Virus record (IMG/VR): IMGVR_UViG_3300045988_047893
DNA length: 52,768 nt
Strand: one strand, 5' to 3'
Source: a virus
Shown here: piece by piece, positions 1 through 52,768 of the stretch
Position numbering within the stretch: the stretch's first letter is position 1
Layout of the letters: every line of letters starts with the position of its first letter
Position numbers and translations under genes: made by a program
Notes under the pieces: generated by a model
Database searches by the model: none
The model's input: the letters and a program-made list of their open reading frames with translations, nothing else
Told to the model about the DNA's origin: nothing

Positions 1-55
1 TATGGGGCGGGGCCGCTTTGTTTGAGCGGTGCGACCCTGCCAGGGCATCCGCTTG
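1..55. repeat. Terminal overlap, identical to 52714-52768 (circular assembly junction)
   Basis: Read directly: TATGGGGCGGGGCCGCTTTGTTTGAGCGGTGCGACCCTGCCAGGGCATCCGCTTG at both ends of the window. Confidence 0.95.
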
Positions 56-296: not shown

Positions 297-427
297 CACG
301 TTGCGGTGTCGTTCGCTGTGGCTGCATTGTAGCACCGCAACGTGTCGCCTGTCAAGCACGTTGCGGTGTTTTCGGCGGTCTGCACAAAAAACACGGTGCG
401 GTGCTGTGAAAATTGCACGTTGCGGTG
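297..427. promoter_or_regulatory. Operator array: four exact copies and one 11/12 copy of the 12-mer CACGTTGCGGTG
   Basis: Direct copies at 297-308, 357-368 and 416-427 (spacing 60 and 59 bp). Exact inverted copy at 333-344. One-mismatch copy at 392-403. All lie between divergent genes. Confidence 0.7.
326..355 (-). promoter_or_regulatory. Leftward sigma-70-type promoter
   Basis: On the - strand: TTGACA (355..350), 18-nt spacer, TACAAT (331..326). The spacer contains the inverted operator copy. Confidence 0.6.
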
Positions 428-26410: not shown

Positions 26411-26520
26411 TGGTGGCTGCGCTCTCCGAACACCAACAATAACAACAACGTCTGGAACGTCAACACCGATGGCTCCAACAACAACAACTGGTACTACAAC
26501 TCCTATGGTGTTCGCCCCGC
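26411..26520 (+). repeat. DGR template repeat (TR)
   Basis: 110 nt. Read in the VR frame it has 12 AAC/AAT codons. It aligns to 28441-28550 and 39811-39909, with differences almost only at TR adenines. Confidence 0.85.
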
Positions 26521-26691
26521 TCTGATGGAACCGTGTGACGAGTAGGCATAAGCTGAAAGCAGTGCGCCCATCAAAGGAAACCGCATCCTGTCGCTTGCCG
26601 ATGCAGGCAAGTGATAAATACATCCCGCTGAGGTGGGCCATCCCTGCCGGATGCAGCCCACTACCGTAACGCGAACCAGCGGAGGGTCATT

Positions 26692-27942: not shown

Positions 27943-29202
27943 ATGGCAAACGTAAAACTGGGCACAAAATCCGTTGGCAGCATTGTCAAAATCAAGGTCA
28001 ACGGCGCGTCCAAAGATTTTATTGTCGTGCAGCAGGGCAACCCGAATACCGGCACCTATGATTCGAGTTGCGCCGGAACGTGGCTGCTGATGAAGGACAT
28101 CTACACAACGTCCACGTTCGGCAACAATAACTCCTACAAGGATTCCAGCATCCACACATACCTGAACGGAACATTCTACAACCTCATCGACAGCAACATC
28201 CGGGCGGCTATTAAGCAGGTGAAAATCCCGTACCAGAACGGCACTGGTTCCGGCGGCAGCCTTGCCACCGGCTCCAACGGCCTGAGCACCAAAGTGTTCC
28301 TGCTGTCTGGTTATGAGGTTGGTTGGACGACCAGCGACAACGGCTATTTCCCAAAGGATGGTGTTCGGCTGGCGTACTTTGGCAACAGCTCTGGCGGCAA
28401 CAGCAAGCGTGTCGCCTACAACGGCAGCTCCGCTGCCCGTTGGTGGCTGCGCTCTCCGTACACCAGCGATGGCAGCGTCGTCTGGCGCGTCTTCACCGAT
28501 GGCTCCAACGGCAACGGCTGGTACGGCAACTCCTATGGTGTTCGCCCCGCTTTCATTCTTCCCTCTACACTCGTGGTCTCTGACGATGGCACGGTCAGTG
28601 TCAACACTGCACCTACCGTCAGCACGGACGGCGCAGCTCTGGGGCAGAAGAACGCGGCCTTTGCGTGGAAGTACACCGTCAGGGATGCCGACGGCGACAC
28701 CTTGACCGTCACCGAAAAGCTGGACGGAAAGACCGCCAAGACCCGCACCGGCGTTGCCAGCGGCACGGCCCTGACTTTTGAGCAGACGGCCAGCGCTGCC
28801 GGATTCCAGAAAATCCTGAACGGCAACCACACCATCACCGTTGAGGTGAGCGACGGCAAGGAAACCGTCAGCACGTCCGCGACCTTTACCAAGGCCGTCC
28901 ACGCCGCAAGCGTGACGCTGGCTGAACCGTTGGCCGTTGAGGGCGACATTACCGTTGCCGTGCTTCAGGTGACCGGCTCCATCCCCGATGATGCGAAGTT
29001 CAAAGCCGAAGTGACCAACAACGCCAAGGACGCGGCCCCGGTGTGGCAGGATGTCACCACCGAGGTGCGGAAAGGCGTGAACATCGTCTTTGAGAACAAG
29101 ACCGCCACGGCGGGCGCGGCATTCAATTTCCGCGTCAGCGTCAGCCGCGGTGCATCCGGCGATGGCGGCTACATCGAAGCCGTCTCCGGCGCATTCCAGT
29201 AA
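27943..29202 (+). CDS. DGR target protein 1 (VR-containing ligand-binding domain plus C-terminal beta-rich region)
   Basis: ATG 27943 after AAGGAGG. WWLRSPYTSDGSVVWRVFTDGSNGNGWYGNSYGVRPAF is encoded by VR1. The C-terminal half looks like Ig-type repeats. Confidence 0.75.
   Translation: MANVKLGTKSVGSIVKIKVNGASKDFIVVQQGNPNTGTYDSSCAGTWLLMKDIYTTSTFGNNNSYKDSSIHTYLNGTFYNLIDSNIRAAIKQVKIPYQNGTGSGGSLATGSNGLSTKVFLLSGYEVGWTTSDNGYFPKDGVRLAYFGNSSGGNSKRVAYNGSSAARWWLRSPYTSDGSVVWRVFTDGSNGNGWYGNSYGVRPAFILPSTLVVSDDGTVSVNTAPTVSTDGAALGQKNAAFAWKYTVRDADGDTLTVTEKLDGKTAKTRTGVASGTALTFEQTASAAGFQKILNGNHTITVEVSDGKETVSTSATFTKAVHAASVTLAEPLAVEGDITVAVLQVTGSIPDDAKFKAEVTNNAKDAAPVWQDVTTEVRKGVNIVFENKTATAGAAFNFRVSVSRGASGDGGYIEAVSGAFQ
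28441..28550 (+). repeat. DGR variable repeat 1 (VR1)
   Basis: 18 differences from the TR: 17 at TR adenines and one T-to-G (TR tac, VR1 ggc). Confidence 0.85.
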
Positions 29203-39382: not shown

Positions 39383-40030
39383 ATGAGTAAGATTTTGAAA
39401 AGCGTAACTCTGGGCGACGTGAAAATTGGCGGCATCTTCAGGGCGCTGGGCAAGGAGTTTGTGAAGCTGGATGCAGACGAACACGGCTGTCTGGTACTGG
39501 CAAAGGACATTTGGACGAGAATGCCGTTCCGCGACGGCGACGACCCGGAATACCCCAACGATCTGCGCCGGAGCGAGATTATGCCATATCTGGGTAACTG
39601 CCTGGCAGAGTTTACAAAGAACGGCACTCCGCTGAGTACATTCATTCCGCTCAGAATCGACCTTCAGGACACGACCGGCCAGAACGAATACGGAATCTTT
39701 GAAGTGAGGATTGGCCTGTTGACCCTGCGCGGGTACGGAAAATATTGGCGGCTGATCCCGAAGGTAGATGCGCCGTGGTGGTTGGCAACGCCTTACGGTA
39801 CGCCGAATTGCTCTCCGCGCACCAGCGATAACAACAACGTCTGGCGCGTCCACACCGATGGCTCCGGCAGCCACTACTGGTACTACTACTCCTATGGTGT
39901 TCGCCCCGTTTTGTGCTTTTCCTCTGCACTCTTGGTCTCTGTCGAGGACGAAAGAGAGGCCGGGTTTTCGCTTTCCGATGTTCCGCTGGATGACCTGCTG
40001 GCCGAAATCAAGAGCCGGACGGAGGGCTAA
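39383..40030 (+). CDS. DGR target protein 2 (remote, non-structural context)
   Basis: 215 aa with no signal peptide. VR2 encodes ..SPRTSDNNNVWRVHTDGSGSHYWYYYSYGVRPV. The N-terminal region resembles target 1 (VKIGGIF.., WWLATP). Confidence 0.75.
   Translation: MSKILKSVTLGDVKIGGIFRALGKEFVKLDADEHGCLVLAKDIWTRMPFRDGDDPEYPNDLRRSEIMPYLGNCLAEFTKNGTPLSTFIPLRIDLQDTTGQNEYGIFEVRIGLLTLRGYGKYWRLIPKVDAPWWLATPYGTPNCSPRTSDNNNVWRVHTDGSGSHYWYYYSYGVRPVLCFSSALLVSVEDEREAGFSLSDVPLDDLLAEIKSRTEG
39811..39909 (+). repeat. DGR variable repeat 2 (VR2)
   Basis: Aligns to TR 26422-26520. The first 98 positions have 13 differences, all at TR adenines. The last position (39909 t, TR c) marks the end of homology. Confidence 0.85.
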
Positions 40031-43516: not shown

Positions 43517-44097
43517 ACCAGCAGATCAACATCAGCAAGTCGAAGCACCGCACCATGCTGAACCGTGAAGCAATCGGGCAGGTCGTTTCGTACTGCGCTG
43601 TTGCTGCGGCGCATGATCTCTGGGACTGGGGCGAGAAAGAATCTACGCTTCTGACCCTGAAAATGAACAATGCTGCATCCCGGTACATTCTGGATCATGA
43701 CAAGTATGGTGCACCGGAAGCAAAAAAGCGACTGGAAGCGCGCACTGCCCACCTGATGCCGGAAGAATTTTGGCTTCCGGTGGGTGGTCTGGTAGGCTCT
43801 GAAAAAAAGCTGCGTGTTCTGGCTGAACGCCGGGACGCTGCAAAGATGATCGTTCGTTTCTTTGTGGAATCGCTGGAAGAAATGGAGTACACCCCTGAAC
43901 AGATCGAGGTCGTGAAGGAAGAAATCAAGAAAAATTACCAGCAGTTCCTCGACTGGGTGGACGATGGCGGAGAAGAAGTTGCCTATGATCGTCTGCGCCG
44001 GGTCATTGAGGACATTTACGGCGTGGGTGCCATGGTGGAGCGCGTCAAGGGTGAAGAGCCCGTTTTCGGAGAACCCCTTTTCAAGAAAGATTTTTGA
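43456..44097 (+). CDS. Hypothetical protein
   Basis: 213 aa with a GGAAAGGAA RBS. Confidence 0.45.
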   Translation: MGKSRARLPAFYRQSIQNAVNQQINISKSKHRTMLNREAIGQVVSYCAVAAAHDLWDWGEKESTLLTLKMNNAASRYILDHDKYGAPEAKKRLEARTAHLMPEEFWLPVGGLVGSEKKLRVLAERRDAAKMIVRFFVESLEEMEYTPEQIEVVKEEIKKNYQQFLDWVDDGGEEVAYDRLRRVIEDIYGVGAMVERVKGEEPVFGEPLFKKDF

Positions 44098-44117
44098 TTT
44101 TTTGGGAGGACTGAGCA

Positions 44118-44645
44118 GTGAAAGTACACGAGGCGGAGGCAATCTTGAAATATTATGCGGACATCCCGCAGCGGATAGAGATCATCCGCCGTCAGTGTAC
44201 CGCGCTGAGCGACGAAGTGGACCCTATGCGGGGAATGGGCACCGATGGAATGCCCCGTGGTGGAACGCCTGGGGACAGCACGGCGGCGATGGCCTGCCGG
44301 ATGGATGAACTGGGCATTGGAGACAAACTGCGTCAGCTGGAACGGCAGCGGGCTGTGTTGCTGGAAGATCAGAACATTATCCGAGGACAAATGAACCGGA
44401 TGGACAGTGGCCACAATCTGATTTTAACGGAGTTCTACATCAACCACAAAAAATGGCACGAAGTACAGCAGAAAGTTCCATACAGTGTGCAGCACTTGAA
44501 GTACCTGCGAAACGTCGCTCTTGCACAGCTGGGAAGGAACCTGGAACGGCTCCCGGAGTGCGCCGCTTTATTATCGCGTGCGTTAAACACGCGCGAGGAA
44601 CAGCGCCGAGCGGATGCCTGGGCGGAGGGTGACATTCTCTTATAG
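44118..44645 (+). CDS. ArpU/RinA-like (sigma-70 region-4-like) transcriptional regulator
   Basis: GTG start. GMGTDGMPRGGTPGDS.. then LILTEFYINHKKWHEVQQKVPYSVQHLKYLRNVALAQL (HTH). Confidence 0.5.
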   Translation: MKVHEAEAILKYYADIPQRIEIIRRQCTALSDEVDPMRGMGTDGMPRGGTPGDSTAAMACRMDELGIGDKLRQLERQRAVLLEDQNIIRGQMNRMDSGHNLILTEFYINHKKWHEVQQKVPYSVQHLKYLRNVALAQLGRNLERLPECAALLSRALNTREEQRRADAWAEGDILL

Positions 44646-44806
44646 GCAAGGCTGCCTGCGGAACTTCATGTGCAGGCGCTTCCGCAAAATCGTGTCCGAT
44701 GGTCGTAGAAAAACAAACACGACTACCCCAAAAATCTGAAAACAGGCATAGAAATAACCCGGCGGGCAGTTGGCCTACCGGGTTTCGTGCAAAGGAGGAC
44801 AAAGTT

Positions 44807-45130
44807 ATGGGAAAGAAGCATAAAAACAAGGTTCGGGTGCTGCCCGGAAGGATGTATAGGCTGGTGCGGAGTGACAGGAGCGTATACTGTGACGCAGAGA
44901 ACGCGCTCAGAACCTGCTTTATCGAAGAAACCAAAGAGCGGCGGACCGCACGGGAAGAGGGCGAACTGTGCCGGTTCGTGAGGATGGCACCGGATGGTGG
45001 CGTTGAACTGATTTCAAACGCAGGAAACGTAGTCCGTTTCAAAAACGCAGAAGATCTTACGAAAACGCTGCGTTTCGCAAAAGATGTGCTGAGGATTACG
45101 GAGGTCTTGAAAAATGGGAATCAAAATTGA
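44807..45130 (+). CDS. Hypothetical protein (paralog of 45114-45350)
   Basis: AAAGGAGG RBS. GNVVRFKNAEDLTKTLRFAKDVL aligns with SDVIRFKNKEMAEATMDAVMRLF. Confidence 0.5.
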   Translation: MGKKHKNKVRVLPGRMYRLVRSDRSVYCDAENALRTCFIEETKERRTAREEGELCRFVRMAPDGGVELISNAGNVVRFKNAEDLTKTLRFAKDVLRITEVLKNGNQN

Positions 45131-45350
45131 ATTGAAAAAACGCATCGAGAAAACCATCAAAGAAAGAGCAGCCAAGAAATTGAGCAAAGAGGAACGCCGA
45201 AAATGGGATTCCTGCCCGGTAGTTCTGAAAGACGAAAACGGGAACGTGTCTATGTTTGCACTGGGGTCGGATGTTATTCGATTCAAGAACAAAGAAATGG
45301 CAGAAGCGACAATGGACGCTGTTATGCGGTTATTCGATGAAACGGAATGA
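45114..45350 (+). CDS. Hypothetical protein (paralog of 44807-45130)
   Basis: 78-aa basic N-terminus. Shares the RFKN motif. Confidence 0.5.
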   Translation: MGIKIELKKRIEKTIKERAAKKLSKEERRKWDSCPVVLKDENGNVSMFALGSDVIRFKNKEMAEATMDAVMRLFDETE

Positions 45351-45563
45351 TGGAATCTCGATGGTTTCATTCATACGTTTCGGAAATCGTCCACGGTGAT
45401 TCTTTCGCAAATGCTGCTGCACGATGTAGCCAAGTGATTCCATAGACAATTTTTCCGAGGATATAACACGAAGCGCGGAATCTTTGCTGGCTTGAACGGT
45501 ATATTCAATTTTACCTCCAGCAAGATTTTTAGTACTTATTCTAACCTGCTGTCTGTTCTGCAT
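45330..45563 (-). CDS. Hypothetical protein in an AT-rich island
   Basis: ATG 45563 after GAAAGGA. Local GC is clearly lower than in the flanks. Convergent with the 45114 gene. Confidence 0.4.
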   Translation of the reverse strand: MQNRQQVRISTKNLAGGKIEYTVQASKDSALRVISSEKLSMESLGYIVQQHLRKNHRGRFPKRMNETIEIPSFRFIE

Positions 45564-45584
45564 ACAAAGTCCTTTCAACACTTT

Positions 45585-45618
45585 AAGCCCGTCAGGTCAT
45601 CGACCTGGCGGGCTTTTT
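45585..45618. terminator. 14-bp hairpin between the leftward operon end and the AT-rich gene
   Basis: AAGCCCGTCAGGTC pairs with GACCTGGCGGGCTT (one G.T on the + strand), followed by TTT on the + strand. The T-tract orientation favours + strand termination. Confidence 0.45.
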
Positions 45619-45630
45619 GGATTTCGTGAT

Positions 45631-45954
45631 TTACTTTTCGTGTGGCGGCTGGTCATCCGGCGGAGCGTTGCGCTTGAAGATGATCTGCGGTTCGTTCGGA
45701 TCCCGGCCTTCCTCTTTGGCGTTCTGGGCGATTTCGTCCATCAGGCCGACAGGAAAACCGTTTTCGTCGAGCGGCCCATCGTAACCGGTGAAGTCAACGA
45801 CGTTCACGCAGGGCGGTTCGGGGATGGTTTTGTAGTATCTGCCGTCCTCATAGTTCTGATCCGTGACCCGGTTCCAGTAACCAATGTCTCCGTGCTGCTC
45901 CTGGGCGGCTTCCATCGCTTCCCGTGCCTGTTCTTCGGTCAATCCGTCGAACAA
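45631..45954 (-). CDS. Hypothetical acidic protein (5' end probably extends to 46013)
   Basis: ORF as given starts at TTG with no SD. An ATG at 46013 lies downstream of GGAGG and becomes in-frame if the A5 run at 46001-46005 is read as A6. Confidence 0.5.
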   Translation of the reverse strand: MFDGLTEEQAREAMEAAQEQHGDIGYWNRVTDQNYEDGRYYKTIPEPPCVNVVDFTGYDGPLDENGFPVGLMDEIAQNAKEEGRDPNEPQIIFKRNAPPDDQPPHEK

Positions 45955-46132
45955 GAGCCGTGAACCATCGGCAAAGGCCGCAACCAGCCGCCAAGGGGCG
46001 AAAAACTCTGCATCTTTCGTAGAAATGCCTCCTTCTGGGCAGTTAAGCCCCTAAATTGTAGGTTTTGTATCAAAAAGGCGGGTTAAATATGCCGAAATAT
46101 CATCTTTAGCAGAAAAAGATGAAGTTTCGTTG

Positions 46133-47023
46133 TCAGGATTTCGATTTTGTGGGGGTGTACCCATTCAGGCAGCGATTGAAACCGCGTTTCGTGAGGGCAT
46201 CGGTAACTCTGTCCTCTGGGAAGTAGTAAGCAGAACCGTCTGCCGCAGGAACAGCCCCGGCGGGATGCTCTGCGCCGGTGTACCAGTCCGTTTCCGTGTC
46301 GTACTTGCGGTGCAGGTACTTGTAAACGTCGCGCTGGGCTTTGTCGAATACCTCCACGAAAGAGAAGGATGCACAAGGCGGCATCTCTTTTGCCAGCATG
46401 GGTGCGTTCTGCGCCAGCCATGCAGCCATTACGGTTTTGGCTGCATTTCGTTTCGGCTTGCCTTCCCGGTGCACCAGATCCAGCAGCTGCACAACAAAGG
46501 GCTTTGGCAGATCGTTCAGCACTTCTTCCAGCGGGTACGGATTTTCGTGCAGCAGGGGCGACGTGCGCAGCTCCGGCACGAGATCCAGATCGTGACAGGT
46601 TACAGGCTTCTGGCGGTCGTCGATGCGCTCACTGGTGTAATACAGCATATCCTTGATTGCATTCTGTGCCGCGTCGGAAAGCTGCTCCACCAGAGCAACA
46701 CTGTCCGCAAAGCTGATCTGCGCCTCGTTTCGTTCGCCGGTGCTGCGGCCCGTCTTATAGGCCGCATCAATGATACCAAGCTCCATAGCCAGCCGGAAAA
46801 TGTGCTTGCAGGGCTTTTTGCGCTTTACAAAATCGTTGCAGGTGCAGCTTGCAAGGCTGGTCTGGTACGGCTCTTTGCCGGATCCATAGAAAACCCCGGT
46901 TTCGTGTTCCTTGTCCACAGAAAGCGGGCTGGTCTTGCTCTGCTGGGCGCTGGCAAGGCGCTTTTCTTCGTCAGTGTCTGCGGGATGCTCTGTCCAGGGG
47001 CCGAAGGCGGGAATCATAGTCAT
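46133..47023 (-). CDS. SWIM zinc-finger protein
   Basis: CTCNDFVKRKKPCKHIF (CxC..CxH). AAAGGAGG RBS. Confidence 0.6.
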   Translation of the reverse strand: MTMIPAFGPWTEHPADTDEEKRLASAQQSKTSPLSVDKEHETGVFYGSGKEPYQTSLASCTCNDFVKRKKPCKHIFRLAMELGIIDAAYKTGRSTGERNEAQISFADSVALVEQLSDAAQNAIKDMLYYTSERIDDRQKPVTCHDLDLVPELRTSPLLHENPYPLEEVLNDLPKPFVVQLLDLVHREGKPKRNAAKTVMAAWLAQNAPMLAKEMPPCASFSFVEVFDKAQRDVYKYLHRKYDTETDWYTGAEHPAGAVPAADGSAYYFPEDRVTDALTKRGFNRCLNGYTPTKSKS

Positions 47024-47126
47024 AACGGGAAACCTCCTTTTCGTGTTTCGTTACGGTCATGATAGAACAAAACGCAAACAAAAGCAATAAAAGGCAAGAA
47101 GATTTCGTGCAGAGGCACCAGAATGA

Positions 47127-47194
47127 CCCCGGCGGGCTACCGGGAAGATGGGGCGGGGCTGCTTTACGGTGCCTGCCCTGCCAGAACTTCCGGG
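47127..47194. repeat. Intergenic two-hairpin repeat R1 (degenerate)
   Basis: CCCGG..CCGGG, then GGGGCGGGGCTGC-TTTACGGT-GCCTGCCCTGCC. Confidence 0.6.
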
Positions 47195-47369
47195 TCTGCG
47201 CTCAGACGTGGACGGTGGGCGGAGCTACCAGGTCGGCGAGGCGGGGCACGGTCAAGTGGTGACGTTCTGTCACCGGTTCCGGGCACTGGTGCTCTGGTTC
47301 TTCATGGTTGCTGCTCCTTTTCGTGATACTGGATTTCGCGATACTCCCGGCGGCTGCCGGGGCTGGCTG

Positions 47370-47588
47370 TCAGAACGGCAGGCCGGTATAGTTGCGCATG
47401 GGAATGGCATCGGCGGCGGGCACCAGCATATTGAGCAGTTGCCGGTATAAAGCCGGGTTTGCTGCACGCTGGGCACGGAAGTCCTCTAGGAATTGCGCCT
47501 GTGCTGCCAGATCGGCCAAGTTTTCGTCATCCACGTTGTAGCATTGGCATTGATCCGGCCCAGCGGAGTATATCCAACATCGAAACAT
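47370..47588 (-). CDS. Hypothetical protein
   Basis: 72 aa with an AAAGGAGG RBS. Confidence 0.5.
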   Translation of the reverse strand: MFRCWIYSAGPDQCQCYNVDDENLADLAAQAQFLEDFRAQRAANPALYRQLLNMLVPAADAIPMRNYTGLPF

Positions 47589-47616
47589 GAAAATACCTCC
47601 TTTCTGTTTCGTGATG

Positions 47617-47693
47617 TTCCCGACGTAAATGCCGGGAAGATGGGGCGGGGTTGCTTTGTCCGGTGCAGCCCTGCCAAAATATCCGGTTTCGTG
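47617..47693. repeat. Intergenic two-hairpin repeat R2
   Basis: TTCCCG..CGGGAA, then GGGGCGGGGTTGC-TTTGTCCGGT-GCAGCCCTGCC-AAAATATCCGG-TTTCGTG. It abuts the stop codon of the 47694 gene. Confidence 0.8.
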
Positions 47694-49319
47694 TTAAGCG
47701 TTCAGCTGTAAAAACGTGCTCTGCGTGGGGATCAGGTGCCGGGTGAGGGTGTCGGTGTAGCTGGCCTCCCCCTCGTAGCTGTCAACCACCCGGCGGTCTG
47801 CGGCGGCCATATCGTGATAGCTCTTTTTGCCGTAGGTGGGCGGCAGCCAGCCTTTGCGCTGTCCGGCGTAGAGGTTGAAGGACTTCAAAACGTCCGTGTT
47901 CGTAAACTCGATGTGGCAGGTGCCTTTCTTGTAAAACGTGGCGGTGAAATAGTGCAGCTGGATCTTCTGGGTCTGGCCGCTCTTTTCGGCGGCATCCAGG
48001 ACGGCGCGGAGTTCGTCCCCATTGTAGGGCTTGCCGTTCGTGTCCAGGAAGTGCAGCACCCGCTCGATCTGGGCAACATGGCCTGTTGCGTTGTACCGGG
48101 GGCAGAAACGCCCATCGTATGTATCAAAGGCGTTGCAGCGGAAAATCACCTTGCGGTTGATCTTGTACGCGGAGTTCGTGCACCAGCCGTTGTAATAATG
48201 CACGTTCTTGCTGTACTCGTCGTTATAATGCAGGTTCGTCCAGTCGTCGAACAGCTTTATAATTTCGTGGTCGATGCTGGAAAGAAGATTTCGTGAAATT
48301 TCTTCCCGGACGGTCAGAATGTTGTACGCGCTGAAGTCGTAGCCTTCAAGCTCTTTGATTCGCTTCTGGTAATCCTGCTGCATTTCGTAGGTCATCGCAT
48401 CGAACAGCTGCGGCATTTCAAACAGCTGTTTCCAGTACATCCCGCGCAGTTCCCGGATAGCGTCGTTATAAGATTTCGTGAAAGCCATCACGGGGTTTTC
48501 TTTCTTACCAGCGCCGGCAGAGGAAAACAACGACTTGATTCCGTTGTACTCTTCATAGATCCGGCGCACACCCTCAGCCGCGGCGTTATACCGTTCAATG
48601 GCTGCCGTGATGGGGTCGGAAGATACCAGGGCGGCAAACTCCGGGTTTTCTTTCAAACGCTCTGCGGTTTCGTTTTTCAGATCCAGCCGGATCCGGCTCA
48701 CCGGCTCCCGGTCGGGAATGTCCACCGACACAAGCGCCACCTCCACGCGGGCGGCGCGGCGGGCGTTCTTGAACGCATCCGGGATATATTTTACCGTGGC
48801 GTGCAGCTCTTCCAGCTTTGCGGCCAGCTCTTTCCGTTCGTTGGTGCAGGGGTTGCGCAGGGTTTCGGCGTTGAGCAGACAGCGGATTTTGCCGCCGTCC
48901 TGCATGACATCCAGCGCTTTGAGCAGGTGCGCGGCACCGGCGGAGAAAGGCGGATTCATGACGATTGCGGCGTATTTCGTGGTGGGGCGGAAGGTCAGAA
49001 AGTTATCATGCACCACCCGGAAACCGTCTTTCTTCAGCTTTGCGCGGAAGTCGCTGGAAAGTTCGATGCAGTCAAGCTCTGCGCTTCGTGCCTTTCCCTT
49101 GTCGTATTGGTCAACCTCGCCGGTCTTATAGTCGTGGTGGACGTTGAACGCCAGGGCATGGACCTGACGCGCAAGCGCTCCATCACCGGCGGACGGTTCA
49201 AGAATGGGTTTCGGGTAGGTGGTGAACCCGGATTTTACTTCCCGCAGGGAAAAGACCATATCAAAGGCCAGGCTGTCCGGCGTGGGGTAGAAGTCCAGGG
49301 CATCGTTGGGGGTGGTCAT
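47694..49319 (-). CDS. N6-adenine DNA methyltransferase with a DUF4942-like C-terminal domain
   Basis: ILEPSAGDGAL (motif I) and AAIVMNPPFS (NPPF motif IV). 541 aa. From memory, this architecture occurs in orphan MTases of mobile elements. Confidence 0.75.
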   Translation of the reverse strand: MTTPNDALDFYPTPDSLAFDMVFSLREVKSGFTTYPKPILEPSAGDGALARQVHALAFNVHHDYKTGEVDQYDKGKARSAELDCIELSSDFRAKLKKDGFRVVHDNFLTFRPTTKYAAIVMNPPFSAGAAHLLKALDVMQDGGKIRCLLNAETLRNPCTNERKELAAKLEELHATVKYIPDAFKNARRAARVEVALVSVDIPDREPVSRIRLDLKNETAERLKENPEFAALVSSDPITAAIERYNAAAEGVRRIYEEYNGIKSLFSSAGAGKKENPVMAFTKSYNDAIRELRGMYWKQLFEMPQLFDAMTYEMQQDYQKRIKELEGYDFSAYNILTVREEISRNLLSSIDHEIIKLFDDWTNLHYNDEYSKNVHYYNGWCTNSAYKINRKVIFRCNAFDTYDGRFCPRYNATGHVAQIERVLHFLDTNGKPYNGDELRAVLDAAEKSGQTQKIQLHYFTATFYKKGTCHIEFTNTDVLKSFNLYAGQRKGWLPPTYGKKSYHDMAAADRRVVDSYEGEASYTDTLTRHLIPTQSTFLQLNA

Positions 49320-49350
49320 GGTGTAAACCTCTTTTCGTGTTTCGTGATAT

Positions 49351-49424
49351 GCCCGGCGGAATGCTGGGCGGTGGGGCGGGGCCGCTTTGTCCGGTGCGGC
49401 CCTGCCAGGGCATCCGGTTTCGTG
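49351..49424. repeat. Intergenic two-hairpin repeat R3
   Basis: GCCCGGC..GCTGGGC, then GGGGCGGGGCCGC-TTTGTCCGGT-GCGGCCCTGCC-AGGGCATCCGG-TTTCGTG. It abuts the stop codon at 49425. Confidence 0.8.
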
Positions 49425-49604
49425 TCAGGTGTTGAGTTGGTAGCCGCGGCGGGCGCAAATGAGGCGGAGCCGGGCGGCGGCGATCTGCTGGCGGACCGCT
49501 TCGGGCCTGCCGGTGCACTGGGCTTCCCGGCGCAGGTCTTGCAGTGTCCACTGCTGACGGATGATCTCGCGGGCCTGCTCAAAGATGTTGTCAAACTTCT
49601 TCAT
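49425..49604 (-). CDS. Hypothetical 59-aa protein
   Basis: ATG 49604 after AAAGGAG, inside ORF 49425-49646. Confidence 0.45.
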   Translation of the reverse strand: MKKFDNIFEQAREIIRQQWTLQDLRREAQCTGRPEAVRQQIAAARLRLICARRGYQLNT

Positions 49605-49624
49605 GATTTCGTTCTCCTTTCGTA

Positions 49625-50215
49625 TCATGCAAACAGGCGGTTGCATACCTGCTGTATTTCGTCGTTCGCCTTCATCGGGGCAATGAGCACGGAAACGGCG
49701 GCCTTCTTCGGGTCTACGGTGTCCGTTGCCAGGATGGGCGCAAACGGGCTGTTGCTGCTGTGGTAAACAAATTCGTGATGATCCACAAAAGCGTCATACT
49801 CCGAATTTATCATGATGGGCCGGGATCCGTTGCGGAACATTCGGAACGTGCCCCAGACTTTGCCCTTTGCTTCGACTTCCTGCAAGATCGAAGTGCGTTT
49901 GACTTCTTCTTTGCAGGCGCTGAACTTCTGGAACATCTGCGCGGCGGTCAGCTGGTGCGGATCGTTGACCACAAACCCGGCATCACTGGAAACGATGGTC
50001 ACGCCGTCGGCGGGTGCGTCCTGCATGGTCACGGGCTGGATAACATCCCGGTAAAGGATGGCGGGCAGCTTGAACGCTGCATAGCCGGTGATGATGTACA
50101 CGCTGCCGCTCTGGCAGGTGATCCGAACGGCGTTGCGGCTTTTTGCCTGCCCTTTCAAATAGGCGGTGATCTTCTTCACGTTCAGCCCGGCGGGGGTGCT
50201 GGTTGCTCTTTTCAT
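49625..50215 (-). CDS. Hypothetical protein
   Basis: ATG 50215 after AAAGGAG, inside ORF 49625-50341. 196 aa. Confidence 0.5.
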   Translation of the reverse strand: MKRATSTPAGLNVKKITAYLKGQAKSRNAVRITCQSGSVYIITGYAAFKLPAILYRDVIQPVTMQDAPADGVTIVSSDAGFVVNDPHQLTAAQMFQKFSACKEEVKRTSILQEVEAKGKVWGTFRMFRNGSRPIMINSEYDAFVDHHEFVYHSSNSPFAPILATDTVDPKKAAVSVLIAPMKANDEIQQVCNRLFA

Positions 50216-50255
50216 ATTGCAAAAACTCCTTTTCGTTTTCGTTCTGTTTTTCGTG

Positions 50256-50329
50256 CCCGGTGCGCTGCCGGGGTAGTGGGGCGGGGTTGCTTTGCCCGGT
50301 GCAGCCCTGCCAAAATATCCGGTTTCGTG
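50256..50329. repeat. Intergenic two-hairpin repeat R4
   Basis: CCCGG..CCGGG, then GGGGCGGGGTTGC-TTTGCCCGGT-GCAGCCCTGCC-AAAATATCCGG-TTTCGTG. Confidence 0.8.
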
Positions 50330-50337
50330 GTGGTGGG

Positions 50338-51189
50338 TCATGCCAGCAGCCCGGCGGCGATGCTTTCAAAGTCCAGCTGTTTCACGGGTGCTTCATCCGG
50401 CGCGGCTACGGCGGCGGGGGCCTGCTTTGCGTCCTCTACGGCCTTCCGGGTCTTGCGCCAGGCATCCAGCGCGGCGGCCTGACCCTTGCGGTCGGTTTCG
50501 GGAACAGCCAGGAAAGCAGCCTTTGCTTCCCGCTCTGCCTTGCGGAGCACATCCGGGGCGGGCTTTTTCGTGGCGGCGGGCTTGCTGGCCTTTTTCGTGG
50601 GCAGCGGATCGACGTGCACAAGCTCCGGCAATTCGTGGTGTTCTTCGGTGATGATGGGGGCCGGGGTGCTGGCGGTCTGCTCTGCTGCTGCCTTTGCGGC
50701 CTTGCGTTCTGCGGCCAGCTTTTTGTTATACTCCATGATGGCGGCGACAGATCCGAAGCGGCCGGCGGGGGCCTGCTTTGCGTCGTGTACCTGCAAGCAG
50801 CTGAACAGGTGCGATTTCGTGGGGTAGAAATGCGGCGCGGGGGCTGCTTCCTTGCCTTCGGCTTCAGCGGCTTCCCGCTGGGCCTTGCTGGGGCGGGTGG
50901 TGTACTTCCACAGGTAGCATTCAATCAAATGCGTTTCGCCCTTCTTGACGCTCTTGCCTTCTTTCTTCCAGTGATCGAAGGTGTGCAGCTCTGCCGCTGC
51001 AAGGATGATTTCAACGTCTGCGATGGTGGCGGGCTGTTCGTCGCCGTTCTCGTCGGTGGTGACTGCGTTTGCAGCCATTGCGGCGATCTGCTCCGGGGTG
51101 TGGTGCGCGGTGGCGATGGCGTGCAGGGTGACGGGGTCCAGCTTCGCGGCTTCGTTCATGATGATCTGATTGTTGGTCATGCCTTTCAT
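50338..51189 (-). CDS. ArdC-N/DUF1738-like ssDNA-binding-domain protein with an Ala/Lys-rich tail
   Basis: LHTFDHWKKEGKSVKKGETHLIECYLWK resembles the TF.QW..G..V.KGEK core of ArdC N-domains. This is a weak call made by eye. Confidence 0.35.
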   Translation of the reverse strand: MKGMTNNQIIMNEAAKLDPVTLHAIATAHHTPEQIAAMAANAVTTDENGDEQPATIADVEIILAAAELHTFDHWKKEGKSVKKGETHLIECYLWKYTTRPSKAQREAAEAEGKEAAPAPHFYPTKSHLFSCLQVHDAKQAPAGRFGSVAAIMEYNKKLAAERKAAKAAAEQTASTPAPIITEEHHELPELVHVDPLPTKKASKPAATKKPAPDVLRKAEREAKAAFLAVPETDRKGQAAALDAWRKTRKAVEDAKQAPAAVAAPDEAPVKQLDFESIAAGLLA

Positions 51190-51234
51190 GGTTCGTTCTC
51201 CTTTGTTCGTTGTGGTTGATGTTCGGGATGATCT

Positions 51235-51298
51235 CCCGGCGGCTGCCGGGGTAGTGGGGCGGGGCTGCTTTGCGGTGCAACCCTGCTAGAGTGTCCGG
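51235..51298. repeat. Intergenic two-hairpin repeat R5
   Basis: CCCGGC-GGCT-GCCGGG, then GGGGCGGGGCTGC-TTTGCGGT-GCAACCCTGC. Confidence 0.75.
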
Positions 51299-51305
51299 CG
51301 GTGGT

Positions 51306-51704
51306 TCATGCGGTGTACATCTGGCGGAACAGGTCCAGCGCTCCGATCTCTGCGGCCTTGTGCTGTGCTGCCAGCTTTGCGCCGGCGCTGTCGTGGCCGT
51401 TGAAGTGGTACGCTTCGGAGTAGGCGTTGACGATGGACCATTCAAGGCGGCTGCGCTCCTGCTGCGCTTCCCACTCTGCCAGATCGAAAACGTAGATGGT
51501 GCAGGTCCAGGCGTACAGGCTGAACACCTGTTCAACCTTGACCTTCAAGCCCTTGCAGCGGTCAAGCGTGGCTTTGATCCGGTCACGCTCCTGCCGATCC
51601 ATGGGAACGATGGAATAGCAGGGAATGAAACGATCGTGCACCGGGGTGACGTTCCAGCGGTGACGGGCTGCCAGCTGGTTAATCTTCTTGTCAAGTGCTG
51701 TCAT
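51306..51704 (-). CDS. Hypothetical protein
   Basis: ATG 51704 after GAAAGGAG. 132 aa. Confidence 0.5.
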   Translation of the reverse strand: MTALDKKINQLAARHRWNVTPVHDRFIPCYSIVPMDRQERDRIKATLDRCKGLKVKVEQVFSLYAWTCTIYVFDLAEWEAQQERSRLEWSIVNAYSEAYHFNGHDSAGAKLAAQHKAAEIGALDLFRQMYTA

Positions 51705-51718
51705 GTTGTGCGCTCCTT

Positions 51719-51973
51719 TCAGCAATCCAGGCCGCAGGCTGCAAGCGTGCGGGTGATGATGTCAACATCTGTCTGGCTCCACTGGCAAGATTTGAGGTCG
51801 TAGGCCAGGCGGTGCAGGTCAATCCCCTGCACCGGTGCGGGGTTGATGGCTACAACGTCGCCGTTGCCCTGCACATAGTCGGCGGCCTCCTTCTTGCTGG
51901 CGGCGGGAACGGTCACGCGGAAAACGCTTTTCCCGTCGTCTAGATACACGTTGTACACGGTCAGTTTCTTCAT
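51719..51973 (-). CDS. Hypothetical protein
   Basis: ATG 51973 after AAAGGAG. MKKLTVYNVYLDDGKSVFRV... The longer ORF-track version (to 52213) would run through repeat R6. Confidence 0.5.
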   Translation of the reverse strand: MKKLTVYNVYLDDGKSVFRVTVPAASKKEAADYVQGNGDVVAINPAPVQGIDLHRLAYDLKSCQWSQTDVDIITRTLAACGLDC

Positions 51974-52016
51974 GGGGTGTGCTCCTTTGTTCGTGGGTTG
52001 ATGTTCGGGATGATCT

Positions 52017-52082
52017 CCCGGCGGCTGCCGGGGTAGTGGGGCGGGGCCGCTTTGTCCGGTGCGGCTCTGCCAGGGCATCCGG
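52017..52082. repeat. Intergenic two-hairpin repeat R6
   Basis: CCCGGC-GGCT-GCCGGG, then GGGGCGGGGCCGC-TTTGTCCGGT-GCGGCTCTGCC-AGGGCATCCGG. Confidence 0.8.
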
Positions 52083-52089
52083 TGGGCAT

Positions 52090-52302
52090 TCAGCCCAGAA
52101 GCGCGGCCGCGGCATCCTGCCAGGTGGGAAAGCTGTAGAACGTGCGGCGCTCTGCGTTGGTGTTCTCGCCGGTGATTCGTGCGGCGATCCGCTGCCCGGT
52201 GCGGGGGTCCCACCCTTCCAGCCGATACCCGGCGGCCTGAAGGCGGCGGGCTGCGGCGTTCTCCTTGCGGTTCCGTTCGCGGATCTGTTCAAGTGTCATC
52301 AT
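52090..52302 (-). CDS. Hypothetical 70-aa protein
   Basis: ATG 52302 after GAAAGGAG. Confidence 0.45.
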   Translation of the reverse strand: MMTLEQIRERNRKENAAARRLQAAGYRLEGWDPRTGQRIAARITGENTNAERRTFYSFPTWQDAAAALLG

Positions 52303-52316
52303 GGTGCAGGCTCCTT

Positions 52317-52664
52317 TCAATCTTCGGTGCAGCCGTGGCAGTAAAGCGCGTCAATCACTTTGTCATCGCTGAAATCTTCCGGGGTGCCGTTCGCGTCAAC
52401 CACCAGGTCAACGCGGTCATAAATTCGCAGATCGGTTTCTGCATCCACCAGAAAATACCAGTCGTCACCGTCCAGCGCGTCGGTGCACCAGACTTCAACC
52501 GCGCCGTCATCGGTGGCGGTCATGCCCTGCACAATGGCCGGGGCGATGTAGCGGCCAAGGGGGCCGACGGTGTAGGGGCATTGTGCCGCGGCCTTCGGTG
52601 CGGTGCCTGCCAGCAGTGCGGCCGCCAGTGCGGCGGCGGTGGTGATCTTCTTTGCAAGTTTCAT
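52317..52664 (-). CDS. Secreted Cys-containing protein
   Basis: Signal peptide MKLAKKITTAAALAAALLAGTAPKAAA. AAAGGAG RBS. Confidence 0.55.
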   Translation of the reverse strand: MKLAKKITTAAALAAALLAGTAPKAAAQCPYTVGPLGRYIAPAIVQGMTATDDGAVEVWCTDALDGDDWYFLVDAETDLRIYDRVDLVVDANGTPEDFSDDKVIDALYCHGCTED

Positions 52665-52693
52665 GTTCTTTGCTCCTTTGCTTTTCAGGTTTG

Positions 52694-52768
52694 CCCCGGC
52701 GGGCTGCCGGGGTTATGGGGCGGGGCCGCTTTGTTTGAGCGGTGCGACCCTGCCAGGGCATCCGCTTG
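52694..52768. repeat. Intergenic two-hairpin repeat R7 (continues across the junction; same bases as 1-55)
   Basis: CCCCGGC-GGGCT-GCCGGGG, then GGGGCGGGGCCGC-TTTGTTTGAGCGGT-GCGACCCTGCC-AGGGCATCCGC. Confidence 0.8.
52714..52768. repeat. Terminal overlap, identical to 1-55
   Basis: Exact 55-nt identity with the window start. Confidence 0.95.

Follow-up and report, generated by a model that had tools for sequence, protein, structure and literature searches.

RAGATH-5 (Rfam RF02685) is an RNA motif that came from the 2015 guilt-by-association screen that also gave the twister-sister, pistol, and hatchet ribozymes (PMC6765202). Rfam types it as "Gene; ribozyme," and the function of the family is still an orphan. 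Our literature search on RAGATH-5 found no paper; the RAGATH papers that were found concern RAGATH-18 only. The biological role of the self-cleaving ribozymes of bacteria and phages is unsolved (PMC6765202). Here we describe seven copies of RAGATH-5 in IMG/VR virus record IMGVR_UViG_3300045988_047893, a phage sequence of 52,768 nucleotides (the window). The copies lie between the genes of a leftward operon. We put the probability at roughly 0.5 that they act as sense RNA in the processing, or "punctuation," of the early transcript between its cistrons.

Several described systems resemble these copies in part. In the early genes of phages T7 and SP82, RNase III sites between cistrons give rise to hairpin-capped, individually stable mRNAs. 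Those sites are likewise repeated, co-oriented, and intercistronic in one long early transcript. They are recognized as double-stranded RNA and consist of irregular hairpins at least about 20 bp long, whereas RAGATH-5 has 10 bp at most plus a pseudoknot. In mitochondria, tRNAs between cistrons recruit a tRNA-processing nuclease ("tRNA punctuation"). The parallel is conceptual and hypothetical; RAGATH-5 is not a tRNA and would be at most a mimic of an acceptor arm. H-type pseudoknots that contain a triplex are found in the SAM-II and preQ1-II riboswitches, in telomerase RNA, and in the frameshift pseudoknots of luteoviruses. Like these, RAGATH-5 appears to place the pyrimidines of loop 1 parallel to the purines of stem 2 and an A-rich loop 3 beside stem 1. 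Unlike the riboswitch and frameshift pseudoknots, it has no sequestration of a Shine-Dalgarno sequence (SD), no slippery site, and no frame relation, and it is present in seven copies in one operon.

The pseudoknots that serve as substrates of RNase P are also close. Kosek et al. (PMC12710915) show that the RNA of bacterial RNase P cuts an H-type pseudoknot where loop 1 meets helix 2, provided that a 3' RCCA trailer is present and not otherwise. The pseudoknotted tRNA-like ends from turnip yellow mosaic virus (TYMV) and tobacco mosaic virus (TMV) are RNase P substrates, and the pseudoknot of the T2/T4 gene 32 mRNA is followed by ACCA (PMC12710915). Whether RNase P targets mRNA pseudoknots in vivo was posed there as an open question (PMC12710915). 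RAGATH-5 shares the H-type topology and a G at the start of stem 2 with these RNAs (TYMV/TMV, a biotin-aptamer pseudoknot with a GCCAC trailer, and gene 32; PMC12710915). It differs from them in its loop 1, which is longer (8 nt) and apparently held by a triplex, and in its CCA, which is internal and not 3'-terminal.

A first-pass annotation of the window, made from the letters alone, had described seven co-oriented repeats between leftward genes and had proposed a search of Rfam. In that search (cmscan, model positions 1 to 53), RAGATH-5 matched all seven repeats at full length and above the gathering score. All of the matches were on the minus strand, which is the sense strand of the genes. 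The scores were 53.0 to 70.4 bits, with a curated threshold (the Rfam gathering score) of 50 bits, and the E values were 1e-10 to 7e-07 for the 6.3-kb region. No RAGATH-5 match was found outside the seven-copy array in the whole 52.8-kb window. A repeat search of the window recovered the repeats as families D2 to D4 at the places noted before. We are almost certain that the seven elements are copies of this known motif. The first-pass annotation had not recognized them, which implied novelty; the element has been catalogued in Rfam since the 2015 ribozyme-association screen and is no new class. The start coordinates it gave are the left ends of a variable hairpin (hairpin A); read in the RNA sense, this hairpin is 3' to the Rfam core. 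The copies are listed here by their coordinates in the window.

47127-47193, minus strand: RAGATH-5 copy R1, core at 47142-47193, 3' hairpin at about 47128-47144, 53.0 bits.
47617-47686, minus strand: RAGATH-5 copy R2, core at 47634-47686, 3' hairpin at about 47617-47638, 68.0 bits.
49351-49417, minus strand: RAGATH-5 copy R3, core at 49365-49417, 3' hairpin at 49351-49369, 70.4 bits.
50256-50322, minus strand: RAGATH-5 copy R4, core at 50270-50322, 3' hairpin at 50256-50272, 69.5 bits.
51235-51298, minus strand: RAGATH-5 copy R5, core at 51248-51298, 3' hairpin at 51235-51250, 68.5 bits.
52017-52082, minus strand: RAGATH-5 copy R6, core at 52030-52082, 3' hairpin at 52017-52032, 68.5 bits.
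52694-52765, minus strand: RAGATH-5 copy R7, core at 52709-52765 with a duplicate at 1-52, 3' hairpin at 52694-52712, 64.9 bits.

The window has an exact terminal direct repeat of 55 nt, with positions 1-55 equal to 52714-52768. This makes it a complete phage genome (52,713 bp) from a circular assembly, so that features at its ends wrap around. R7 had been described as spanning the junction. It does lie there, but it is complete, and the match at window positions 1-52 is the same copy seen again through the terminal repeat. Its 3' hairpin is CCCCGGC/GCCGGGG (7 bp), and its CCA is at 52716-52718. It is a long-loop variant with a GCGG/CCGC pseudoknot. In R6, a distance of 7 nt separates model position 1 from the upstream gene's stop codon (52090-52092), and the CCA is at 52037-52039. 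R5 also has its stop codon (51306-51308) 7 nt upstream and belongs to sequence class CUCU/UU/AG. The stop codon of R4 (50338-50340) is 15 nt upstream, and a CACGAAA heptamer abuts the core. In R3, the stop codon (49425-49427) is followed by CACGAAA and then by the core, and the next start codon downstream is at 49319. R2 has its stop codon (47694-47696) 7 nt upstream and a 3' hairpin of UUCCCGGC/GUCGGGAA. R1 is the most divergent copy. It is barely over the gathering score and contains one additional base in the upper stem.

The core starts 6 to 8 nt past the upstream stop codon in six of the seven copies and 15 nt past it in the other. The end of the model is 44 to 58 nt from the next start codon, except in R1, where the distance is 118 nt (start codon at 47023). 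These distances agree with the original description, in which each copy sat between a stop codon and the SD of the next gene. The copies are 63 to 98% identical to each other within this genome and so are not recent duplications.

Nothing essential separates the window copies from the RAGATH-5 family. They contain the hairpin with an ACCG...AAA loop and the single-stranded flanks CGGAYAC... and ...GCCCCA (model alignments and 158 unique relatives). They also share the phage-like, ribozyme-rich neighborhood of the family. The window is a terminase-bearing phage, and its relatives interleave twister-sister and type II hammerhead ribozymes with RAGATH-5. The Rfam scan found no twister-sister or hammerhead ribozyme in the window itself, which contains RAGATH-5 only. 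The lineage of the window differs from the RF02685 model at 15:40, where it mostly has A·C instead of the C-G of the model, and it adds the accessory 3' hairpin.

The core pattern of RAGATH-5 matched at least 120 IMG/VR stretches. It was also retrieved from genomes of Faecalibacterium, Gemmiger, Oscillibacter, and other Oscillospiraceae, in a genome-wide pattern scan that gave many chance matches in GC-rich genomes besides the true Oscillospiraceae ones. A covariance-model search had been proposed in the first-pass annotation; the model built in this analysis found 239 copies in 100 sources. With nhmmer, 337 copies were found in 140 related loci, and no locus had copies on both strands. An open reading frame (ORF) on the same strand ends just upstream in 324 of the 331 parsed copies, with a median gap of 7 nt and with 204 copies at 5 to 8 nt. 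An SD and start codon are present downstream in 311 of the 331, at a median of 54 nt.

The closest cultured relatives of the window are the Faecalibacterium phages Lelie (L242, PP479942) and FP_Toutatis (L241, MG711466). Each contains 6 to 8 copies above the Rfam gathering score. Lack of the element in relatives had been named as a reason to give up a functional interpretation; both phages carry it. Their copies sit in gaps of about 85 to 120 nt between genes annotated as "hypothetical protein." The GenBank records of the two phages annotate no RNA features, RAGATH-5 copies included. With 6 to 8 copies per genome in cultured phages that have a cultivable host, end mapping and deletions are feasible. 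The interest of the element rests on a testable structure and mechanism and on these cultured phage-host pairs, not on novelty.

RAGATH-5 occupies the same intergenic niche as the twister-sister and type II hammerhead ribozymes in sister phages. The ribozymes are found in the same slots, on the same strand, and in the same arrays. Loci L005 and L037 have twister-sister interleaved with RAGATH-5, as do 12 of 18 other loci, and the type II hammerhead is interleaved with it in loci L096, L105, and L184. The twister-sister copies of L005 start 1 nt past the stop codon, and one of them ends about 20 nt before the next SD. The two ribozymes are unrelated to RAGATH-5 in sequence and fold, and self-cleavage is proven for them, whereas RAGATH-5 is a candidate (PMC6765202). 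Another orphan Rfam motif, the DUF3800-VIII RNA (RF03075), is also present near RAGATH-5/twister-sister arrays. It lies on the opposite strand (L045, 5084-5151, plus; L133, 7383-7449, plus).

The statistics of the fold come from 103 to 158 distinct sequences. Stem 2 (positions 13-22 with 33-42) is the single stem of the Rfam model and is the same as hairpin B of the first-pass annotation. The covarying pair that had been noticed in hairpin B exists and is model pair 20:35 (UA 60, CG 37). In the window, it is C-G in R3, R6, and R7 and U-A in R2, R4, and R5. The opposition at 15:40 is mostly A·C, and that at 19:36 is C·A in more than half of the sequences. These are not real pairs. Such fixed A·C and C·A oppositions could be functional A+·C pairs, sites free for contact with loop 1, or signs of a function on the other strand.

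Stem 1 is a pseudoknot between the 5' xCGG (1-4) and the loop CCGy (24-27). Pair 1:27 is CG in 23, GC in 22, and AU in 2 of the long-loop variants, and 2:26 becomes G-C in the GGG/CCC variants. The strands 1-4, 13-22, 24-27, and 33-42 give the classic topology of an H-type pseudoknot, and the covariation extends past the Rfam hairpin. The pyrimidines of loop 1 follow the purines in the 3' strand of the stem in a parallel register, at 9:35 (UA 64, CG 38, UG 1) and at 10:36 (UA 60, CG 43). None of 500 shuffles reached these values, and slid controls collapsed. Position 35 covaries with both 9 and 20. The classes CUUU/CC/AA and CUUU/CC/GA connect the states, and positions 9, 20, and 35 switch together. 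The covariation supports a model in which loop 1 (5-12) would lie in the deep groove, with U•A-U or C+•G-C triples at 9•35-20 and 10•36. Loop 3 contains an invariant AAA, which presumably packs against stem 1. An antiparallel register of 10:36 and 11:35 (UA 64, UG 20, CG 19) fits the letters equally and weighs against this fold. The parallel triple is preferred on steric and topological grounds only, because the antiparallel register cannot coexist sterically with the lower stem. The 11:35 correlation lacks an explanation under the parallel register.

Stem 2 is directly followed by a single-stranded NCCA (43-46). Conservation here was counted in 116 sequences that were matched by the 5' half only, with the 3' half free. 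C43 was present in 113, C44 in 114, and C45 and A46 in all 116, and conservation collapses after A46. Position 13, at the start of stem 2, is G in 136 of 158 sequences. The conserved single-stranded nucleotides of the motif are GGAYAC, AAA, and CCCA. Hairpin A usually comes next and overlaps just the final few positions of the Rfam core. Among 203 distinct downstream sequences, 176 form its stem with 4 bp or more; some copies lack the hairpin. Several sequences that are unrelated to one another serve as hairpin A (CCCCGGC..., GCCC-AAAA-GGGC, GCC-GCAA-GGC).

Taken singly, the copies have modest z-scores for folding (+1.1 to -2.5); the case for structure rests on homology and covariation and not on folding energy. 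Covariation among homologs had been named as a test of the element, and it was found at 20:35, 1:27, 9:35, and 10:36. The anatomy of two hairpins was accurate. Their equal status was not; hairpin B with its flanks is the conserved core, and hairpin A is a variable accessory. The pseudoknot, the covariation of the loop-1 pyrimidines, and the invariant NCCA tail had been missed. Together, the H-type pseudoknot, the loop-1 triples, and the NCCA make a concrete three-dimensional proposal, from which a falsifiable RNase P mechanism follows.

The window encodes small and large (lambda gpA-type) terminase subunits. The leftward block encodes chiefly small proteins without assigned function (Pfam, PHROGs). 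Three products stand out from these: a DUF4942 methyltransferase (47694-49319), a protein that has a weak ArdC-N-like match (50338-51189), and one with a SWIM finger (46133-47023). One candidate promoter of the leftward operon was found.

326-355, minus strand: candidate promoter for the leftward operon; TTGACA-18-TACAAT and an upstream TG; 11 of 12 matches.

Judging from its sequence, this is likely the single promoter of the operon that carries all seven copies. No sigma-70-like promoter (-35/-10 with 16- to 18-nt spacing) was found on either strand in 44000-52768, where 3.1 were expected. The same region contains 15 terminator-like sites, none of which coincides with a RAGATH-5 copy. No U-tract follows either hairpin on the sense strand at any of the seven copies. 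The absence of a U-tract and of a -35/-10 pair had been noted before, and no terminator or sigma-70-like promoter was found to coincide with the copies. With one strong promoter, no internal promoters, and no terminators at the copies, all seven would most simply be transcribed within one long polycistronic RNA, a leftward early mRNA from the promoter at about 326-355.

A processing or stability signal between cistrons was the first role listed in the first-pass annotation. As a predicted role, it fits the comparative evidence best, because RAGATH-5 occupies the same niche as the twister-sister and hammerhead ribozymes. RAGATH-5 would split or delimit the polycistronic RNA at cistron boundaries, either by directing cleavage or by undergoing it. 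Self-cleaving ribozymes, which hold the same intergenic slots in sister phages, are credited with this function. The cutter would more likely be a trans-acting nuclease than the motif itself, and host RNase P appears to be the best candidate. It would cut at the junction of loop 1 and stem 2, between positions 12 and 13. The downstream mRNA would then have its 5' end buried in a GC hairpin, with hairpin A next to it. In a variant of this mechanism, the cut would fall between the CCA and hairpin A, and the upstream mRNA would keep a tRNA-like 3' cap.

In its specific form, the proposal is that RAGATH-5 is a minimal mimic of the tRNA acceptor arm, a substrate and not a ribozyme, and that host RNase P cuts the early mRNA between cistrons. 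We regard this as tentative and rather doubtful. It would explain both the niche shared with ribozymes and the lack of self-cleavage in vitro. The topology of an RNase P substrate is present, since loop 1 meets stem 2 at the would-be site with G13 at +1. The helix is directly followed by the single-stranded NCCA, but its first base is C rather than the R of RCCA in 113 of the 116 sequences. If RNase P does cut here, the question whether mRNA pseudoknots are its targets in vivo (PMC12710915) would be answered. It would also point to mRNA punctuation as the role of the ribozymes that these operons contain. RAGATH-5 would then be a bacterial or phage counterpart of the mitochondrial tRNA punctuation.

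Several points weigh against these proposals. The case for processing is drawn solely from the position of the copies and the company that they keep. The report that the screen's additional candidate structures showed no cleavage in experiments and have no known function (PMC6765202) counts in favor of the proposals, but that RAGATH-5 itself was among those assayed is unconfirmed. The tight spacing to the upstream stop codon, together with the variable distance downstream, could instead mark a 3'-end cap for the upstream cistron. For RNase P, a C stands where the discriminator base would be a purine, and A, G, or U is found at -1, where U is preferred. A loop 1 locked in a triplex could also hinder access to the cleavage site.

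RAGATH-5 may itself be a self-cleaving ribozyme that needs conditions, flanks (the spacer of 5 to 8 nt or the 3' hairpin), or a cofactor absent earlier. Its Rfam type says as much, and the twister-sister, pistol, and hatchet ribozymes came out of the same screen (PMC6765202). Twister-sister and hammerhead ribozymes alternate with it within arrays, and it combines conserved unpaired nucleotides with a pseudoknot, as small ribozymes do. We nevertheless consider a ribozyme unlikely, given the report that the additional candidates did not cleave (PMC6765202) and a simple H-type pseudoknot that has no obvious internal loop or junction as in the known classes. An uncut RNA could also act mechanically, as a roadblock or cap that stops RNase J or 3' exonucleases, shields cistron boundaries, or affects termination and reinitiation. 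A compact pseudoknot with a triplex would suit such a function, as would a 3' hairpin that is conserved in structure and variable in sequence. The narrow spacing from the stop codon (204 of 324 copies at 5 to 8 nt) would suit it as well. Judging from ribosome footprints, a ribosome that terminates at roughly this distance (5 to 8 nt) would leave the fold intact. Such a mechanical role also seems unlikely, however, as it leaves unexplained both the invariant single-stranded NCCA and the substitution by true cleaving ribozymes in the same slots. The flanking genes also show no frame relation to each other. Over 228 distinct junctions, the downstream frame was distributed 82:77:69. With no frame preference, programmed recoding (read-through or frameshift) is not involved, despite a spacing of 5 to 8 nt that is recoding-like. 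The translational coupling suggested in the first-pass annotation gets no support either, given the same absence of a frame relation. A further idea is an RNA operator, in which one phage or host protein would bind all of the copies and control the translation or decay of the early operon. The operon has seven near-identical structured sites with conserved single-stranded GGAYAC, AAA, and CCCA, and it is rich in small proteins without assigned function. There is also the precedent of a phage mRNA pseudoknot followed by ACCA (PMC12710915), and the arrangement can be likened to gp32 on the T4 gene 32 mRNA. We find an operator improbable. No protein family is known to covary with the motif, which is common to single-copy and eight-copy phages. 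The copies are about 54 nt upstream of start codons and not over the SD, and the interchange with ribozymes would be left unexplained.

The processing role assumes that the sense RNA is the functional molecule, and here too there is evidence on the other side. The A·C oppositions of the sense strand (15:40, 19:36, and some 1:27) would be G·U or G·T wobbles on the plus strand. U19-A36 is never seen, though A36 is common. The 3' hairpin has 12 G·U compared with 26 A·C, many of them from spurious stem extensions, and in 156 of 195 downstream segments the more stable fold is that of the antisense strand. The wobble evidence had been called mixed for the seven copies, and the same was found in the homologs. 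These observations would suit hairpins of the plus strand (single-stranded DNA in replication or packaging) or an antisense RNA. We judge either to be very improbable. Because the sense strand is A+C-rich, composition alone gives the antisense strand the better folds. Sense RNA is favored by the 57 sense-compatible U·G at 11:35 and by the covariation of 10:36 while position 19 stays C, which fits a contact in sense RNA and not a mirror-image purine triple. It is also favored by an orientation that always follows the genes (337 copies, no mixed loci) and by the strand-specific ribozymes in the same slots. No antisense promoters were found in 44000-52768. A signal at the level of transcription (an intrinsic terminator or attenuator, an internal promoter, or a put/nut-like antitermination RNA) is still less credible. 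There are two stem-loops in a nascent phage early transcript, an arrangement that the put site of HK022 superficially resembles. An intrinsic terminator was rejected because the hairpins have no T-tract (U-tract in the RNA) and none of the 15 terminator-like sites is at a copy, and an internal promoter has against it the count of 0 where 3.1 were expected on both strands of 44000-52768. The antitermination that had been suggested earlier would involve seven copies across 6 kb that are a long way from the single promoter, and no terminators are predicted that they could override. Least credible of all is a neutral duplicated spacer or selfish mobile repeat. The element is multicopy and intergenic, but it is kept in orthologous slots across many diverged phages and hosts, with strict orientation and with compensatory and triple covariation, and the copies within this genome are just 63 to 98% alike. 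The covariation and the conservation across phages rule out the neutral spacer that the first-pass annotation had left as an alternative.

Three other candidates were rejected. An RNase III site of the T7 type needs about 20 bp (two helical turns); the longest helix of RAGATH-5 is 10 bp and contains internal mismatches, and the 3' hairpin is 5 to 8 bp. The class of palindromic repeats that includes repetitive extragenic palindromic sequences (REP), bacterial interspersed mosaic elements (BIME), and miniature inverted-repeat transposable elements (MITE) does not fit 337 copies in 140 loci, none of which has both orientations. ARAGORN found no tRNA in the window. Overall, the repeats are confirmed, and their earlier interpretation is partly supported.

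A heptamer that adjoins some of the copies is enriched in the same region.

44783-50821, minus strand: 23 copies of the CACGAAA heptamer (TTTCGTG on the plus strand), some of which abut RAGATH-5 cores or SDs.

TTTCGTG/CACGAAA has 32 matches in the genome on both strands, compared with 8.7 expected. The 23 TTTCGTG on the plus strand are all inside 44783-50821, and 11 of these are inside coding sequence. The other 9 TTTCGTG are on the minus strand elsewhere in the genome. In related loci, CACGAAA occurs 751 times on the sense strand, compared with 67 expected. It is commonly just before an SD or just 5' of a RAGATH-5 core. A binding site, a pause site, and a Chi-like signal are possibilities for it.

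One hairpin of the 3' type was found by itself.

47345-47362, minus strand: lone 3'-type hairpin CCCGGCGGCTGCCGGGG without a RAGATH-5 core, directly after the stop codon of the minus-strand ORF 47370-47588.

Neither Rfam nor the covariance model matched a RAGATH-5 core at this hairpin. After it come CACGAAA, an SD, and an ATG at 47305, and the ORF that starts there stops after 11 codons. A different frame is open for 55 codons, to a TGA at 47202-47204, just before R1. The region 47202-47369 may be a frameshifted or very small gene. At the other end of the array, a GNRA-type hairpin is present at 61-76, about 10 nt 5' of R7. Its sense sequence is CCACC-GAAA-GGCGG, with one A·C opposition, and it is kept at the same place in many related phages (TACCACCGAAAGGCGGTAAAGTCAAGCGGAT).

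Repeats resembling operators surround the leftward promoter.

297-309, 357-369, and 416-428: operator-like repeats CACGTTGCGGTGT, which enclose the leftward promoter.

An inverted copy of CACGTTGCGGTGT is at about 333-344, and a variant is near 390-405. The repeats overlap the leftward promoter (355 to 326). Facing them is a small ORF that runs rightward (480-710) and has no Pfam match. The region 297-428 is probably a control region for lysis/lysogeny or for early genes. Locus L005 contains a comparable set of operator-like repeats after a twister-sister ribozyme.

Direct repeats of about 25 to 37 nt are present in 886-1371, for example, CAGCAGATCACCCCGCC at 906, 1143, and 1347. They lie in a GC-rich stretch (about 750-1900) without a convincing gene, which has the early control region on one side and the gene for the small terminase subunit on the other. 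They may be cos-proximal or replication-related binding sites. A direct repeat of 136 nt is present in three copies (26421-26556, 28451-28586, and 39810-39945) with 71 to 79% identity. It lies inside the rightward block of structural genes and may encode a repeated protein domain.

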